Shown here piece after piece: positions 43,984 to 49,787 of a DNA stretch of 64,000 nucleotides (positions are counted from its first letter, which is position 1; each line of letters opens with the position of its first letter). This stretch comes from Actinomycetota bacterium (GTDB taxonomy: Bacteria > Actinomycetota > Humimicrobiia > Humimicrobiales > Humimicrobiaceae): NCBI GenBank assembly GCA_028717265.1, contig JAQUOE010000003.1:825-64824 (forward strand), in the 5' to 3' direction. The notes under the pieces were generated by a model. The model was given only the letters and a program-made list of their open reading frames with translations. It made no database searches and had not been told where the DNA came from. The position numbers and the translations under genes are program-made.

Positions 43984-44901
43984 CTATTTCCCGAGTATTT
44001 TCCTTAACTCCTCTGTTGTGTTTTTATCTATCCATTTATTTTGATGCGCAATTTTACTTGTTTCTATCCCCATGATTTTATACAGATCAGCGTACTCTTT
44101 CGGAAAAAATTTATTGAAACCTGCCATATGTTCCTTTATGGTTCCCGTATCTCCTCTTGCTATCGGTCCGGTCAGGGATTTCTTTGTTCCCATTTTCTTT
44201 ATATTACCCACTGTTCCCTCCGCCAGACTTATTAAACCCTTTAATGAATCCTCTGGCTTTATCCCTATCTTTTTGTGTATTGATACGGCATAATCCATAA
44301 GAGTTACAAGATAGTTTGAAGCGGCACATGCAGCTGCATGGTAAAGTGGTTTTTTTCCGTCTTCTACCTCAATGGTTTCCCCTCCGAGATTTCTCACCAG
44401 AAATTCTGCCATTTTTTTTGATTTTATGCTTGAAAAGGTTACTCCGAATACGGTTCCCGGCAGGGATTTTACGGCTTCTTCCGCAGAAGCAAAAGATTTT
44501 AACGGGTGTATGGATGCAGTTTCAGCTCCTGCGTCTCTGGCGGAATCCAGGACCGCAAGCGGCTTCGATCCGCTGAAATGAAACACATAATAATCTTTCA
44601 AATAACTATTTCTCTTGTTTTTAAAAATATTATCGCTGACTGTCCTTATAGAATCATCCGGGATGCATATTAAAACGCAATTCGCAAGTGACGCTGCTTT
44701 GGCATTGTCCCTGGTAAAAATTATATCAGCCGCTCCGGCTCCCAAAAATTTCCTTGCCCTCTTTAAAGTTTCCGCTGATCTCGAAGAAATGGCCCTTATC
44801 TTTATACCCGATGATTTTCTTAAGGAAAGCGCATAACATATAGTTATGCCAACCCTTCCTGCGCCAATGACGCACAGGTCTATTTTTTTTATTTTTTCCA
44901 T
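43984..44901 (-). CDS. panG: Rossmann-like + DUF2520 protein, probable PanG-type ketopantoate reductase
   Basis: IGAGRVG, HFSGS, HPLKSF, YHAAACAASNY, LTGPIARGD; first gene of the pan cluster. Confidence 0.75.
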   Translation of the reverse strand: MEKIKKIDLCVIGAGRVGITICYALSLRKSSGIKIRAISSRSAETLKRARKFLGAGAADIIFTRDNAKAASLANCVLICIPDDSIRTVSDNIFKNKRNSYLKDYYVFHFSGSKPLAVLDSARDAGAETASIHPLKSFASAEEAVKSLPGTVFGVTFSSIKSKKMAEFLVRNLGGETIEVEDGKKPLYHAAACAASNYLVTLMDYAVSIHKKIGIKPEDSLKGLISLAEGTVGNIKKMGTKKSLTGPIARGDTGTIKEHMAGFNKFFPKEYADLYKIMGIETSKIAHQNKWIDKNTTEELRKILGK

Positions 44902-44939: not shown

Positions 44940-46049
44940 CTAGGAGACTCTGATGGGCATAAGTAAATAAATCAAGTCTTTGTTTTTTTCAGATTTTATC
45001 AAAATAGGTTTAAGGGGTTCCTCTATCGATAATATTATATTCTTCTCGTCCATAATATTTAAACCGTCGATTAAAAACTCGGGATTAAAGGCTATCTCCA
45101 TTCTTTCTTCTCCATATGAAACATCAAAATCCTCGCTGGAGCTTCCAATTTCTCTTATATTCATAAATACCGTTATTTTACCTTTATCAATAGTGATCTT
45201 TACGGGTATGTTGTCCTGCGAGATTGATGAAATTCTCTTTACCACCTCAAGCATTTTGTCTTTATCTATTATTATGTCGTGCTTCATTTTCTGAGGAATA
45301 AGCTGTTTGTATTCCGGGAATTTTCCGGAAAGTAATCTTGACACCATAATGATCTTTTTTTTACTGGCGCTTTCCATGTAAAAACTTGCCTGGTTTTCTT
45401 CGATGCTTATCTCTATATCTCCGTCCCTAAATTCACTTTTAACAATATTGTCGAGAACTTTTGAGGGAACGACAACTTTTATCGGTTGTTTCCCGCCGCC
45501 TATTTTTTCTTTAACCAGAGCCAGCCTGTAGCTATCAGTTGCTACCATGCTCAACACGTCATCCCCTATCTCCAGAAGCACTCCGGTCAGGATTGCCCTT
45601 CCTTCGTCCAGGGATGCTGCTTTTTCTGCTTTTGACACAATATCCTTAAATTTATTCAGGTTTATTTTCAAATAATTTTCTTTCTTTGTTTCTGGGAAAA
45701 CCGGGTATTCTTCCAGAGATAATGTATTTAATGTAAAAAATGCGTTTTCGCAACTAATTTTTACCTGGTTCTTTGTCTTGTCCAGTTCCAGCTCTATTTT
45801 TGATTCTTTCAGGCTTTTTAATATATTTGCCAGAATCCTTGCGGGCACCACCGCTTTCCCTCTTTCAAGAACCTTTACTTCCATTGTGCATTTTATGCTT
45901 GTCTCAAGATCGGTACTGTATACAGTCAGGCCCTCTCCGGCATCAAGCATGATCCCGTTCAGTATGAACGATGAGGCTTTTGGACTTATTGCTCTGCTGG
46001 CAAATAAAATAGTTTCCAGAAGGTCGGTCTTTGTAGTTTGAAATTTCAT
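44940..46049 (-). CDS. dnaN: DNA polymerase III beta sliding clamp
   Basis: STDLE, ILTGVLL, VATDSYRLA, GKFPEY, IAFNPEFLIDGL, YLLMPIR. Confidence 0.97.
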   Translation of the reverse strand: MKFQTTKTDLLETILFASRAISPKASSFILNGIMLDAGEGLTVYSTDLETSIKCTMEVKVLERGKAVVPARILANILKSLKESKIELELDKTKNQVKISCENAFFTLNTLSLEEYPVFPETKKENYLKINLNKFKDIVSKAEKAASLDEGRAILTGVLLEIGDDVLSMVATDSYRLALVKEKIGGGKQPIKVVVPSKVLDNIVKSEFRDGDIEISIEENQASFYMESASKKKIIMVSRLLSGKFPEYKQLIPQKMKHDIIIDKDKMLEVVKRISSISQDNIPVKITIDKGKITVFMNIREIGSSSEDFDVSYGEERMEIAFNPEFLIDGLNIMDEKNIILSIEEPLKPILIKSEKNKDLIYLLMPIRVS

Positions 46050-46349
46050 TATAGCCCTCTAATTTCTTTAAATATTTGAAATATAAACATATTTTATTAT
46101 ATATAGTGTTTAATTTAAATAGTCAGTAATAGTTATAATATATGTTGAGAATGTTAAGATGGTAAAAAAAGACAGTGAATTACAGCCGGTTCCATAAAGA
46201 CACCTGTTAACAATACAGCTTAAAGCTGTTTAAAGTAATAAAAAAAATATATAAGAAAATTAAAACGTTTAGTTTTAAACAAGGGAAACAGTTAATTGTT
46301 AAAAACTTTATCTATTATTCAACAGGTTCTAAACACAGGCATTCAGATT
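46050..46349. other. Predicted oriC unwinding region (dnaA-dnaN intergenic): variant DnaA boxes, DnaA-trio-like repeats, AT-rich DUE
   Basis: Minus strand ATCTTAACA TTCTCAACA (46160-46143), then ACTATTACTGACTATT (46133-46118), then AT-rich tract. Further TT(T/C/G)TNAACA at 46205, 46273, 46297, 46327. Confidence 0.75.
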
Positions 46350-47711
46350 TTACGCAGACGTCTTTATCCTGTTGGTAATTTCCTGAATCTGTACATAGAC
46401 AGTTTTATCGGTATTTATAAGATTTGAGATTCTTGAAACGGCGTATATTACAGTTGAATGATCGCGGTTCCCGAAAGATTTTCCGATTCTGGGCAAAGAA
46501 CTGCTTGTAAGCTCTCTGGATAAATACATTGCGAGCTGACGTGCATGTGATATGAATTTATTTCTCTTGGCACTTATAATATCATTGATGGGTATTGAGA
46601 AATATCTTGATACTTCTTTAATTATTGTTTGAATACTTATCTTGTGATCCGTATCATCGGGCAAAATATCTTTTAATATGTTTTTAGCCATGTTTAAATC
46701 CGGTTTGGAGTTAGTAAGGGAAGCAAATGCGACTATTCTTGTAAGAGAACCCTCCAGCTCCCTGATGTTAGAAGTAATTTTTTCGGCAATTAAATTTAGT
46801 ATGTCATCAGAGGTAGAGATTTTTTCTCTTTCGGAATATTTTTTTAAAATTGCCAGTCTTGTTTCCAGATCCGGCGGCTTGATATCAGTCACCAGACCCC
46901 ACTCAAACCTTGACCGGAGTCTTTCTTCAAGAGTGGAAATGTTTTTTGGTGCCCTGTCGCTTGAGAGGACTATCTGCCGGTTGGTATCATGAAGGGCGTT
47001 AAATGTATGAAAAAATTCTTCCTGGCTGGCTTCCTTATCCTCGAGAAAATGTATATCATCGACGAGCAAAACATCATTGTTTCTATAGTTTTCTTTAAAC
47101 GAAAATATATTTTTATAACGGAGAGCATTTATAAAATCATTAAGAAATCTTTCAGCCGAAACATATTTTATGGTTTTATTGGGATGCAGCTGCATTGTGT
47201 ATTGAGCTATTGCATGCAGAAGGTGCGTCTTTCCCAATCCCACTCCCCCATAAATAAACAATGGATTATAGGCTTTGCCCGGATTCTCGCTGACCGCAAG
47301 AGAGGCAGTACAGGCAAACCTGTTGCTGCTCCCAACGATAAATGTATCAAAAGTGTACTTTGAATTAAAAAGAGAATTTTTGTTTTGTTTAAAGGGATAC
47401 TTTTCCTCTTTTAAAGTTTCGTCAATGTATTTGTCATATTTACCGTTAGTATTTTTGGAACTTCCGGGAACAGTAACGATTTTTATTTTACATGAATTGT
47501 TTGTCGCTTTTTTAATTGATTCCGATAGAAGATTTGAGTATCTGGACTCAAGCCACTCTTTAGCGAAATTACTGCCGACTGAAATAGTTAAACAGTTTTT
47601 TTTTAACGAAAGTGGGGTTATGTGTTCGAACCAGGCTTTATATGTAGGGAGATTGATATTGTTTTTAATATCTTCGAGAGTATTTTTCCAGATGTTTTGT
47701 AGGTCCGACAT
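46350..47711 (-). CDS. dnaA: Chromosomal replication initiator DnaA
   Basis: YTFDTFIVGSSN, YNPLFIYGGVGLGKTHL, LLVDDI, RLRSRFEWGL, NIRELEG, domain IV RDHSTVIYA. Confidence 0.98.
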   Translation of the reverse strand: MSDLQNIWKNTLEDIKNNINLPTYKAWFEHITPLSLKKNCLTISVGSNFAKEWLESRYSNLLSESIKKATNNSCKIKIVTVPGSSKNTNGKYDKYIDETLKEEKYPFKQNKNSLFNSKYTFDTFIVGSSNRFACTASLAVSENPGKAYNPLFIYGGVGLGKTHLLHAIAQYTMQLHPNKTIKYVSAERFLNDFINALRYKNIFSFKENYRNNDVLLVDDIHFLEDKEASQEEFFHTFNALHDTNRQIVLSSDRAPKNISTLEERLRSRFEWGLVTDIKPPDLETRLAILKKYSEREKISTSDDILNLIAEKITSNIRELEGSLTRIVAFASLTNSKPDLNMAKNILKDILPDDTDHKISIQTIIKEVSRYFSIPINDIISAKRNKFISHARQLAMYLSRELTSSSLPRIGKSFGNRDHSTVIYAVSRISNLINTDKTVYVQIQEITNRIKTSA

Positions 47712-47723
47712 AATACTCTAATA

Positions 47724-48590
47724 TTAAATATTATTTGAATAATATTCAAGGTATTTTAATCCTTTTTTAGATAATTTTCTCTTACCGTTACTGCTTGAGG
47801 CAAGCAGTTTGTTCTTTTCCAGGTAGATTAATTCCCGGTATGAAGTAGAAAGACTGAAGCCCAGTTCGCTGGCTATCGTAGAAGGCCCGGCTTCCTCAAG
47901 CTCAAGGATCACAAAAAGGATTTTCTTTTGTCTGTCAGATAATAATTTACGGTCAAATTTATCAATGCCATCCGCCGGGTTTTTTTTATCCTCATCGAGG
48001 ACAACAGGTATCGATTCACCGGTTGTCTTGATTTCCGTATCTTTTACACCATCACTCTTTTCCGGCTGCCCAAGTTTTAAAGATATTACTGTCCCTTTTC
48101 TTATATTATCCTTTACATCGATAGACCCCCCCGAAAAAGTTATTGTTTCCTTTACTATGGGAAAACCTGAACCTACCCCCCTGATATATTCTTTCATTTT
48201 ACTCGTAGCAGAAGTATATCCCGGTAGAAAAGCTTTTTCTTTGTCTTCGATTCCCGGCCCCTGGTCCGTTATGATGATATGGTCTCCCCTTCCCAGTACG
48301 GTAATAACAACTTCTTTGAAATCTGCGTGTATAAGATTCTCTATTATCTCTTTTATTATTGTGTAGGGAATCCTTCCTCCTATCTCATGGGACAGACTGT
48401 AAGTTTTTTGTGTGGTTTCATTAATGAAGTCGGCAATATTATCATAGCTGAGATTCACTATCCTTGGAATACTGCGCATGTTGTCATAGACTGCGATCCT
48501 GACTGGTATTTTTTCAATGTTTCCATAGATTTTTTCGGAATCGGCAGCAATATTTGGTTTAGTATTTTCGTCAGGCATTATTAATTTCAA
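47724..48590 (-). CDS. Uncharacterised GHKL (HATPase_c) ATPase fused to a C-terminal winged HTH
   Basis: N box EIIENLIHA, G1 DQGPGI, G2 GVGSGF, G3 KGT; C-terminal LSDRQKKIL...GPSTIASELGFSLSTSYRELIYLE...GKR; no His phosphoacceptor helix seen. Confidence 0.8.
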   Translation of the reverse strand: MKLIMPDENTKPNIAADSEKIYGNIEKIPVRIAVYDNMRSIPRIVNLSYDNIADFINETTQKTYSLSHEIGGRIPYTIIKEIIENLIHADFKEVVITVLGRGDHIIITDQGPGIEDKEKAFLPGYTSATSKMKEYIRGVGSGFPIVKETITFSGGSIDVKDNIRKGTVISLKLGQPEKSDGVKDTEIKTTGESIPVVLDEDKKNPADGIDKFDRKLLSDRQKKILFVILELEEAGPSTIASELGFSLSTSYRELIYLEKNKLLASSSNGKRKLSKKGLKYLEYYSNNI

Positions 48591-48671
48591 CTTTAACGTG
48601 AATTGTCCTATTTAACAGAAAACATATCAATAAGCGATATTACTTTTCATTTTCTTTTCAGAAGCTTAAGG

Positions 48672-48812
48672 TTTTCAACAGATTAATAATAATATTTTAA
48701 CAAGGAAAAAGCTACTAGATTGTACGATAAGTCCTTCGGATTAAAATCATATGACATATGATTTAGTGAAGTTTTTTAAGTTTTCAACAATTTTTTCAAC
48801 AGGTGTTGAAAA
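48672..48812. promoter_or_regulatory. Cluster of four perfect TTTTCAACA 9-mers (putative variant DnaA boxes) between the GHKL gene and rpmH
   Basis: Plus strand at 48672, 48781 and 48793; inverted (TGTTGAAAA) at 48804. Confidence 0.65.
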
Positions 48813-49054
48813 GTTATTTAAATTTTTGAAATGCTATGAGAAATTACACCATAATATATATAAAATAAATATCATTTTCAAAAGAGGTCTTTCACCAGAA
48901 CAGATGTTTGAGTAAATAACATGCTTCAAAAAAAAGATAAAAATAAAAATGCTTAAAGGAACACTTATTTAAATGTGGGAATCTTGATATTAGAAAGATT
49001 AAAATGTATAATCTACTACTTGACTGAAAACAATAATATATAGATTGGGTAAAA

Positions 49055-49189
49055 ATGAAAAGGACATTTCAGCCTAACGCAAGGAAAAGAAAAAAGGTTC
49101 ACGGTTTCAGAGTAAGAATGGAAACCAAAGCCGGCAGGGCCATAATTTCGTGCAGAAGAAAAAAAGGAAGAAAAAAGCTTTCTGCTTAA
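49055..49189 (+). CDS. rpmH: 50S ribosomal protein bL34
   Basis: Below the ORF cutoff; [44 protein letters not shown]. Confidence 0.97.
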
Positions 49190-49210
49190 AGATGAAAAAG
49201 GAAGACTGAT

Positions 49211-49552
49211 ATCAAGTTTGAAACACTTAAAAGAAAAAGTGATTTTTCAAGAGTAGTAAAAAAAGGTTCATGTAAAAGAGATAAATATTTAACTTTATAT
49301 ATATTCAAAAAAGCAGAAGTTCGTGGACCCGTAAGAATCGGATTAGGAGTAAGTAAAAAAATAGGCGGAGCCGTTCTAAGAAATAGAATTAAAAGAGTGT
49401 TAAGAGAAGCTTTAAGAAAAGTTGAAATAGAAAGTTGCAATAATTTAGATGTTTTAATTGTGGCTAAACCGGCCATCACCACCGCAAGCTTAATGGAAAT
49501 AAAGAAGATACTGGAAAAGACTTTGACGTCGTTTCTTACCGGCCAACCGTAA
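49211..49552 (+). CDS. rnpA: Ribonuclease P protein component; no canonical start codon in frame
   Basis: Open frame 49196-49552: ...KFETLKRKSDFSRVVKKG...RIGLGVSKKIGGAVLRNRIKRVLREA...LDVLIVAKP; RNR motif intact; in-frame TGA at 49193-49195 immediately upstream. Confidence 0.88.
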   Translation: MKFETLKRKSDFSRVVKKGSCKRDKYLTLYIFKKAEVRGPVRIGLGVSKKIGGAVLRNRIKRVLREALRKVEIESCNNLDVLIVAKPAITTASLMEIKKILEKTLTSFLTGQP

Positions 49553-49577
49553 ATAATAATCTATCAATTGTTTAATC

Positions 49578-49787
49578 GTGAAAAAAATACTGATTATTTT
49601 AATTAAGTTTTATAAAAAATATATCTCACCCGTATTACCAAAAAGTTGCAGGTTCTACCCTACCTGTTCTGAATATGCAATCGGCGCCATTAGTAAATAT
49701 GGTGTATTTAAAGGTAGTATTAAATCAATGTATAGAATTTTAAGATGTAACCCCTTCAATAAAGGCGGATATGATCCTGTAAAGTAA
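49578..49787 (+). CDS. yidD: Membrane protein insertion efficiency factor YidD
   Basis: [33 protein letters not shown]. Confidence 0.96.

Follow-up and report, generated by a model that had tools for sequence, protein, structure and literature searches.

A GHKL-winged helix gene conserved directly upstream of dnaA and flanked by DnaA-box clusters: a possible modulator of DnaA or oriC

The window analysed here, a 64,000-nucleotide (nt) stretch of contig JAQUOE010000003.1 (assembly GCA_028717265.1), belongs to a 1.59-Mb metagenome-assembled genome (MAG) of Humimicrobiia-type Actinomycetota and carries, just before dnaA, a single-copy gene whose product combines a GHKL ATP-binding domain with a C-terminal winged helix-turn-helix (wHTH). 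Judged from the loci compared below, this GHKL-wHTH gene is a conserved upstream partner of dnaA, and the GHKL-dnaA pair sits between two clusters of DnaA boxes. On the strength of this gene context, we tentatively propose, with somewhat less than even confidence, that the protein acts as an ATP-gated, DNA-tethered modulator of DnaA or of oriC. The building blocks of the protein are known; what has not been described is the family, its fixed place before dnaA or a function at the origin.

The initial annotation of this DNA had reported a 288-amino-acid (aa) open reading frame (ORF) on the dnaA strand, ending 12 bp before the dnaA start. We found it at the same coordinates (47724..48590, minus strand, starting from a TTG at 48590), and it is a real gene. 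The alternative ATG at 48578, which gives a protein of 284 aa, is the likelier start because a protein-database form of this length (P0001) is 100% identical and because relatives begin with MP(D/E); residues are therefore numbered here on the 284-aa form. The stop codon occupies 47724-47726 and a spacer of 12 nt separates it from the dnaA ATG at 47711. The first search retrieved 1185 homologues. An exhaustive profile search of 1.84 billion representatives gave 394 clusters (50% identity) with E<=1e-30, a number that rises to 620 when matches up to E<=1e-10 are counted. Generic HATPase_c matches fall below the E<=1e-10 set, which indicates that GHKL-wHTH proteins form a discrete family.

The association with dnaA is without exception in the loci that can be tested. 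DnaA, DnaN, ribosomal protein L34 and YidC were placed by tblastn in each fetched locus, and 156 non-redundant loci were considered. In all the 148 loci with enough sequence past the GHKL-wHTH stop codon, dnaA lies directly downstream on the same strand. The eight others end at most 214 nt from the stop; in five of them the gene is the last one of a finished circular record, and dnaA is the first gene of that record in 5/5 cases. The total is 153 of 153 testable loci, distributed over many families and at least three phylum labels, and the conserved adjacency to dnaA that the initial annotation had put forward as its main check is borne out. On the other side, rpmH is divergent and upstream in 140/141 loci. 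The exception, a Coriobacteriia-type locus (L071, G372:C1:2215200-2223700), has the order dnaN(-) GHKL(+) dnaA(+) rpmH(+): the breakpoints of this inversion fall in the two DnaA-box regions that flank the GHKL-dnaA pair, and the pair itself is intact. The median distance between the two genes is 12 nt; the distance does not exceed 25 nt in 95 of 140 loci and reaches 126 nt at most. Many lineages have junctions with the sequence signature of translational coupling, either through a Shine-Dalgarno sequence in the final GHKL-wHTH codons or through overlapping stop and start codons (ATGA, TGATG). Four loci of a sister family of the same class (L033-L035 and L043) have an exact TTTTCAACA within the coding part of the GHKL gene, 12 nt ahead of the stop codon, and the dnaA ATG stands 2 nt past that stop, preceded by an AAGG/TAAGGA Shine-Dalgarno sequence.

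The rate at which the protein evolves resembles that of DnaA. Median pairwise distances are 0.90 for GHKL-wHTH, 0.78 for DnaA, 1.31 for DnaN and 1.16 for YidC; the family thus evolves slightly faster than DnaA and slower than DnaN and YidC, and these distances indicate strong purifying selection. Partial mirror-tree correlations of GHKL-wHTH are 0.39 with DnaA, 0.32 with DnaN and -0.02 with YidC, a suggestive but weak signal in favour of a connection with DnaA.

Several features place the pair within the origin. The cumulative GC skew has its minimum at 44-46 kb, and this turn locates the locus at the replication origin. The upstream box cluster, within the rpmH-GHKL intergenic region (48579-49054), contains four of the window's five exact TTTTCAACA (Table 1). 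The dnaA-dnaN intergenic region, with 13 boxes per kb against 1.0 per kb window-wide, is the probable second half of the origin. Considering one-mismatch forms, TTTTCAACA is enriched 10-13 times in both flanking intergenic regions and is absent from the two coding regions. Within the family it is present in 38 of 42 intergenic regions, with 98 copies in total. Relatives have canonical or near-canonical DnaA boxes, such as TTATCCACA, at the equivalent position: in Rubrobacter, exact TTATCCACA boxes number three ahead of the gene and 14 between dnaA and dnaN, and 6-11 near-canonical boxes are found in Sysuimicrobiota and Bacillota-labelled loci. The variant box differs by a C6-to-A change that accompanies an altered DNA-reading signature in the C-terminus of DnaA, for which canonical forms have RDHTTV(M/I/L)HA. 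Indeed, the 32 loci whose DnaA has the signature RDHSTVIYA contain 88 TTTTCAACA and zero TTATCCACA, and the loci with RDH(T/S)TV(M/I/L)HA contain mainly canonical box forms; the initiator and its box have apparently co-evolved. Since canonical boxes occupy the same place in relatives and the variant varies together with the DnaA signature, we read TTTTCAACA as the DnaA box of this lineage, and for the same reasons rejected it as an operator of the wHTH. Upstream of the gene, DnaA-box words are also the sole universal motif in 76 diverse representatives (TTTCCACA in 60/76, for a shuffle maximum of 14). Repeats of the TAGTAGTAG type, which resemble DnaA-trios, occur in the dnaA-dnaN gap of 18/63 diverse representatives (for example L127). 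The arrangement suggests that the unwinding side of the origin is downstream of dnaA. In front of rpmH, a near-consensus, promoter-like TTGATA-17-TATAAT (48984-49012, plus strand; 11/12 in a promoter scan) has -10 and -35 words that are kept in 35-39 of 42 relatives.

Concerning the protein itself, all four Bergerat motifs listed by the initial annotation were located: EIIENLIHA (77-85), DQGPGI (105-110), GVGSGF (134-139) and KGT (161-163). The Pfam model HATPase_c (PF02518) matches residues 72-170 with E=7e-11, and it matches 54/54 family members. In an AlphaFold2 (AF2) model built on 54 diverse homologues (mean predicted local distance difference test, pLDDT, of 84.9), residues 24-168 form a compact alpha/beta domain with pLDDT 91-97, in which a beta-hairpin and a helix (residues 24-65) come ahead of the N-box helix. 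In the family alignments, E77, N81, H84, D105, G107, P108, G109, G134, G136, G138 and G162 are invariant across classes, and the E77-x-x-x-N81 dyad is invariant or nearly so. The N-box segment PYTIIKEIIENLIHA finds its best alignment with MutL P..VVKELVENSLDA, where KEIIEN corresponds to the KELVEN of MutL (KELVENSLDA), with E-values of 0.01-1. In this alignment, E77 and N81 coincide with the catalytic glutamate and the Mg-binding asparagine of MutL, GyrB and Hsp90, and also of the GHKL Ser kinases. The ATP lid has about 27 residues and is kinase-like in the model, as is the G2 box. Altogether, the domain looks, from its residues, competent for ATP binding and catalysis. The nearest folds in Foldseek are the catalytic and ATP-binding (CA) domains of CpxA and HK853 (E ~1e-6). 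Profile searches give histidine-kinase-type models as best matches (E=1e-7), with weak matches to CheA, BCK kinase, MutL and anti-sigma F, and the best NCBIfam match of the protein is the nucleotide-binding domain of NifL (E=1e-5, far below cut-off).

The ATP-binding domain is followed by a linker of about 40 residues, which varies in length between lineages and reaches 100-250 residues in some relatives; such free variation fits two modules joined by a tether. The expanded linkers (L040 from G010, L069-L071, L076, L082 and L083) are of low-complexity sequence, rich in N/S in one genus of the same family and in P/Q/Y/G/A in Coriobacteriia. The Coriobacteriia with long GHKL-wHTH linkers also have a longer N-terminal part of DnaA. 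The C-terminal wHTH proposed by the initial annotation is upheld by an AF2 pLDDT above 89 and by family models that match up to 41/54 members, and we consider it, on the model, as a MarR/TrmB-like winged helix and a predicted DNA binder. Its elements are H1 (215-227), H2 (232-239), the recognition helix (243-255), the wing (259-269) and a C-terminal helix (271-283). The match is weak in the single sequence; over the family, the HVO_A0261_N, TrmB, IclR and MarR models match 18-41 of 54 members (TrmB, 37/54), and the wHTH models of Csa3 (E=6e-5) and CasR (E=1.5e-6) are matched as well. Few parts of the protein are as well conserved as the recognition helix (S-L-S-T-A-Y-R-D-L) and the wing (G-K-R), with R248 invariant and G265 and R267 of the wing invariant or nearly so. 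Membership of a defence system was considered and dropped, as the CasR/CARF models match the wHTH alone.

The distribution of the gene is broad. Within the class, it is carried by 79/87 genomes, 46 of the 48 high-quality genomes and all 19 genera (19/19), and close homologues come from sources named Candidatus Humimicrobiaceae or Hydromicrobium. An even sample of the phylum contains it in 146/401 genomes and 77/248 genera, and a scan of one genome per species gave at least 555 confirmed relatives. Exact look-ups identified cultured carriers, namely Rubrobacter radiotolerans, R. xylanophilus, Cryptobacterium curtum, Arabiibacter massiliensis and Miltoncostaea marina; all five copies are annotated just as "ATP-binding protein" or "histidine kinase". 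The similar proteins that the initial annotation placed in Coriobacteriia do exist, in C. curtum and A. massiliensis. Its idea of a lineage-specific system needs correction in that the gene is not narrowly confined: it spans most non-Actinomycetes Actinomycetota, Sysuimicrobiota and a Bacillota-labelled clade. In a tree of 126 members, the sequences group by lineage: Rubrobacteria, the Miltoncostaea group, Sysuimicrobiota/CSP1-3 (16 members, partly labelled Armatimonadota), Coriobacteriia and Humimicrobiia, the latter with a small Bacillota-labelled group as its sister. The labels "Eubacteriales" and "Actinomycetes" of some MAGs inside Coriobacteriia-like clades are probably mislabels. No homologue was found among 72,556 plasmids or 50,697 phages, and an origin from mobile elements was rejected on this basis; the picture that emerges from these sequences is that of a vertically inherited chromosomal gene of housekeeping type. 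Longer homologues have N-terminal extensions without any Pfam domain, and no fusion with DnaA was seen among the top 150. Two MAGs of the class have the coding sequence broken into two frames, between its GHKL and wHTH modules in one (G057:C3:8371-9365; L051, L111) and at about residue 88 in the other (G014:C25:22396-23234); these cases could be assembly errors, decay or natural splits.

The 3' end of the gene contains a signal conserved at the nucleotide level. Synonymous diversity is lower in the nine final codons than anywhere else in the gene (0.08 for a mean of 0.48, permutation p<5e-5, 38 family orthologues). In 40 unique sequences, the block CTTGAATATTATTCAAATA (47732-47750) and TAATAT (47721-47726, stop codon plus TAT) are essentially invariant; the next six bases are free, and the A at 47714, exactly 7 nt past TAATAT, is kept in 38/40. 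The layout is that of a -35-like TTGAAT (47744-47749), a 17-nt spacer, the -10-like TAATAT and a +1-like A. The element includes a perfect 15-bp palindrome, TTGAATATTATTCAA (47735-47749), which is unique in the genome, stands at the same position in every family locus and is absent from other families. In one relative (L045) the symmetry of the palindrome is broken and the -35-like half is closer to consensus (TTGACT), which favours the promoter reading. The stretch 47714-47750 may therefore be an internal, near-leaderless and family-specific dnaA promoter, and such a putative promoter would leave the dnaA mRNA with 0-3 nt of leader. Ahead of the dnaA ATG, the window's family has no conserved Shine-Dalgarno sequence. 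On the minus strand, there is no terminator-like site between the GHKL-wHTH gene and dnaA. On sequence grounds, dnaA may here be transcribed both from a box-controlled upstream promoter and from its own promoter in the 3' end of the GHKL gene. The co-expression with dnaA supposed by the initial annotation is a possibility: no terminator-like site interrupts the pair and other lineages have coupling-type junctions, but the promoter-like element in the last nine codons is of a kind that this annotation had itself named as counting against strict co-transcription. An RNA hairpin as the cause of the synonymous constraint is less likely than a DNA element: the fold has z=-1.9 and is AU-only, and the variable positions are in the 3' arm without compensating changes. 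The palindrome as the operator of a regulon is unsupported, given its uniqueness in the genome, its absence in other families and its asymmetry in L045.

The coordinates of these features are collected in Table 1. The identities of the flanking DnaA, DnaN, L34 and YidC are upheld by NCBIfam-type model matches. Past rpmH, the window continues with rnpA, yidD, yidC, jag, mnmE and mnmG, in this order. Just downstream of dnaN, a 305-aa ORF (43984-44901, minus strand) with a GxGxxG Rossmann-like N-terminus has no NCBIfam model match at E<=1e-5. An Rfam scan of 45900-49700 returned nothing beyond a match to AsdA (antisense RNA of dnaA mRNA) at 47195-47252 on the plus strand, which is most likely due to chance (20 bits for a gathering threshold of 52, E=0.69).

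Table 1. Coordinates in the window of the GHKL-wHTH gene, its parts and the surrounding origin features (strand "." where none applies)
Feature	Coordinates	Strand	Basis or detail
GHKL-wHTH gene	47724..48578	-	P0001 match, Pfam HATPase_c, family alignments
Bergerat-fold ATP-binding domain, residues 24-168	48075..48509	-	AF2 model, invariant columns, Foldseek
Flexible charged linker, residues 169-212	47943..48074	-	AF2 pLDDT 43-55 over residues 177-200
C-terminal wHTH (predicted), residues 213-284	47727..47942	-	AF2 pLDDT 89-98; wHTH model matches
Nucleotide-level conserved element, CTTGAATATTATTCAAATAATATTTAATAT	47714..47750	-	Overlaps last 9 codons, stop codon and spacer
Upstream DnaA-box cluster	48672..48812	.	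Four exact TTTTCAACA: 48672+, 48781+, 48793+, 48804-
dnaA-dnaN intergenic region	46050..46349	.	One-mismatch boxes at 46143, 46273, 46297, 46316
dnaA	46350..47711	-	TIGR00362, 550 bits; 12 nt downstream of the GHKL-wHTH gene, same strand and same reading frame
dnaN	44940..46049	-	TIGR00663; 300-bp gap to dnaA
rpmH (L34)	49055..49189	+	TIGR01030; divergent from the GHKL-wHTH gene, 464-bp gap counted from the TTG start

In the mechanism that we tentatively prefer, the winged helix would anchor the protein on origin-region DNA, and the GHKL domain would bind ATP and, given its E-x-x-x-N dyad, probably hydrolyse it or transfer phosphate. One nucleotide state of this domain would then act on DnaA or on the DnaA assembly at oriC, and expression from a DnaA-box-controlled promoter beside dnaA would let the amount of protein track that of DnaA. 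Inference in this scheme covers the binding to DNA, whether the target is DnaA or oriC, whether the protein inhibits or activates, and whether it works as a switch, an ATPase or a kinase. A set of observations weighs against this proposal. The conserved adjacency to dnaA establishes a functional link and not a mechanism, and the mirror-tree correlation is modest and shared by DnaN. Beyond DnaA boxes and TAGTAG-type repeats, the intergenic regions contain no second universal motif that would be a candidate operator of the wHTH. The recognition helix is nearly invariant while the DnaA-box variants differ between lineages, so that the wHTH is unlikely to read the variable positions of the boxes. 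The fold is closest to the CA domains of kinases, which do not dimerise on ATP binding. Finally, the promoter-like element at the 3' end could allow independent transcription of dnaA, which would loosen the argument of a fixed ratio between the two proteins. A more precise form of the proposal, which we hold as an unlikely but specific possibility, is that of an "anti-initiator": a GHKL kinase or ATPase, held at the origin by its winged helix, that would contact DnaA directly and act on it by phosphorylation or by ATP-dependent sequestration, and would represent a new class of regulator. We raise it because the arrangement echoes spoIIAB-sigF and rsbW-sigB; spoIIAB and rsbW each lie just before the gene for the protein that they control, and translation of the two genes is coupled.

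Among the other explanations, the closest competitor, a one-component transcription factor, which we also regard as rather improbable, would use the GHKL domain to sense ATP/ADP (energy charge) and to gate the wHTH at the dnaA/rpmH control region. It would tune the transcription of dnaA, and perhaps of rpmH-rnpA-yidC, without acting on the DnaA protein or on origin firing. The succession of sensor, linker and wHTH is indeed that of ligand-gated DNA binders, the wHTH resembles those of TrmB, MarR, IclR and Csa3 regulators, and the GHKL domain of NifL, the best (sub-threshold) NCBIfam match, senses ADP. The gene also sits in a divergent promoter region with conserved blocks, and the invariant palindrome over the promoter-like element just before dnaA could be an operator. 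However, this palindrome occurs in a single family, in contrast to a recognition helix that is kept across phyla, the L045 relative loses its symmetry while its -35-like half approaches the consensus, and the 76 representatives share no universal operator-like motif. Moreover, pure ligand sensing has no need of an invariant catalytic-type E77, and absolute synteny over phylum-level distances is rare for ordinary autoregulators. A factor of origin architecture or segregation, which would bridge or remodel the two box clusters in an ATP-driven way or organise the origin while leaving DnaA activity unregulated, appears quite unlikely to us. The location of the GHKL-dnaA pair exactly between the two clusters, the N-box like that of the DNA-acting GHL ATPase MutL and the long flexible tether between domains would suit such a role, but the protein has neither the transducer domain nor the long ATP lid of clamp-forming GHL ATPases, and it is small, with a single wHTH and no sign of oligomerisation.

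Two further explanations dissociate the gene from replication. It might encode a Ser/Thr (or other) kinase, or an anti-sigma-like partner-switching factor, whose substrate is unrelated to replication, its position before dnaA being a frozen accident that secures constitutive expression. The E-x-x-x-N dyad, the profile matches to BCK kinase and anti-sigma F and the similarity of the fold to kinase CA domains are in line with this. Nevertheless, we judge it very improbable, because linkage in 153/153 loci, kept through the L071 inversion, is hard to explain by accident, because a wHTH would serve no evident purpose in a soluble kinase, and because the genome lacks STAS and STAS_2 domains, no sigma factor gene adjoins and HATPase_c_2 is matched in just 2/54 members. 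As for the idea that the ORF is due to chance, to a decaying insertion or to an error of annotation in the origin region, the frame splits in G057 and G014 are the only hint of it; this explanation is refuted by conservation, with hundreds of intact orthologues that retain the invariant motifs, a confident AF2 model and an evolution slower than that of DnaN and YidC, and we give it practically no credence. We therefore keep the modulation of DnaA or oriC as the preferred, tentative reading.

The control of replication initiation is well understood in few model bacteria and, to our knowledge, no regulator of DnaA is known in Actinomycetota outside the class Actinomycetes. Linkage to dnaA, flanking box clusters, an intact ATP site and slow, DnaA-like evolution together match what one would expect from a protein that works as a core partner of DnaA. 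If the proposal is true, control of DnaA or oriC by a GHKL-type protein would be without precedent as a mechanism. An anti-initiator would then be common to most non-Actinomycetes Actinomycetota (including gut Coriobacteriia and Rubrobacter), to Sysuimicrobiota and to the Bacillota-labelled clade; the cultured carriers make the hypothesis testable at the bench. Neither NCBIfam nor Pfam has a curated family for the full protein, and a full-text search of the literature, of incomplete coverage, found no description of the family. According to a 2026 study (PMC13270200), the domain-I dimer of DnaA found in Actinomycetes is not conserved in the other classes of Actinomycetota, which may use a different logic of initiation control; these are the classes where the GHKL-wHTH gene occurs, a coincidence that we take as a lead only.

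Compared with known systems, the GHKL-wHTH protein does not qualify as a histidine kinase, an anti-sigma kinase, a GHL ATPase or a COG2865 protein, since it lacks the features that define these groups. The CA domains of two-component histidine kinases (CpxA, 4biv; HK853, 3dge; KinB, 3d36) are its best matches in fold and sequence, and they share with it a short ATP lid, DxGxG and GxGxG boxes and an F-box-like LPG(F/Y)T. In contrast to these kinases, it has no dimerisation and histidine phosphotransfer (DHp/HisKA) hairpin, phosphoacceptor histidine, sensor or transmembrane part, its N-box reads E-x-x-E-N-L-I-H-A instead of N-x-x-x-N-A-x-K, and it adds a beta-hairpin and helix (24-65) before the N-box and a C-terminal wHTH. 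The absence of a phosphoacceptor histidine and of a partner response regulator had been stated by the initial annotation, and both points are confirmed: there is no Pfam HisKA match, the AF2 model has a beta-beta-alpha arrangement and not a helical hairpin before the N-box, the sole invariant histidine (H84) is within the N-box, and the adjoining genes are not response regulators (dnaA in 153 loci, rpmH in 140). With the GHL ATPases (MutL, GyrB, Hsp90, MORC), the protein shares motif I, P-x-x-[IV]-[IV]-K-E-[IL]-[IV]-E-N, but it lacks their transducer (S5 domain-2-like) domain: the GHKL domain ends at about residue 168 and gives way to the disordered linker, and its lid is short.

The anti-sigma GHKL Ser kinases SpoIIAB and RsbW are likewise small soluble proteins with the E-x-x-x-N dyad, which is typical of GHKL Ser kinases (SpoIIAB, PDK/BCK). 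They are, however, single-domain HATPase_c_2 proteins of about 145 aa, whereas the present protein has 284 aa with an additional linker and wHTH, and the two HATPase_c_2 matches in the family are at E ~2e-3. The lack of any STAS or STAS_2 antagonist in the 95%-complete genome, in which the controls matched as expected, argues against partner switching of the classical type. Only one solved structure aligns with the GHKL domain and the wHTH together, DIP2311 of Corynebacterium diphtheriae (PDB 3lmm; 274-336 columns, query TM-score 0.44, 11% identity in Foldseek), a COG2865-type "predicted transcriptional regulator" with an AlbA_2 / HATPase_c_4 / wHTH architecture, and several family members carry the COG2865 name in JGI labels. 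DIP2311 differs by its AlbA_2/Schlafen domain and its HATPase_c_4, neither of which is present here (no Pfam HATPase_c_4 match), and it is a structural-genomics protein of unknown function whose gene is not linked to dnaA. One-component regulators such as TrmB, MarR and the CARF-wHTH proteins Csa3 and CasR have the same layout, with an N-terminal sensor, a linker and a C-terminal wHTH; the sensor is here a Bergerat ATP-binding fold with catalytic-type residues, and not a CARF or sugar-binding domain.

Finally, the proposed role would be similar to that of the known regulators of DnaA or oriC (YabA, SirA, Soj, DnaD, Hda, DiaA, HobA, SeqA, MtrA, AdpA, HP1021 and CtrA), among which MtrA, AdpA, HP1021 and CtrA bind origin DNA through HTH-type domains. 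None of them has a GHKL domain or is a fixed upstream neighbour of dnaA, and none of their Pfam or NCBIfam models matches the GHKL-wHTH protein. With regard to the origin itself, dnaA also lies within bipartite origins in Bacillus and Helicobacter, and the present locus, where dnaA is likewise between box clusters, differs from them by the extra gene that it encloses.

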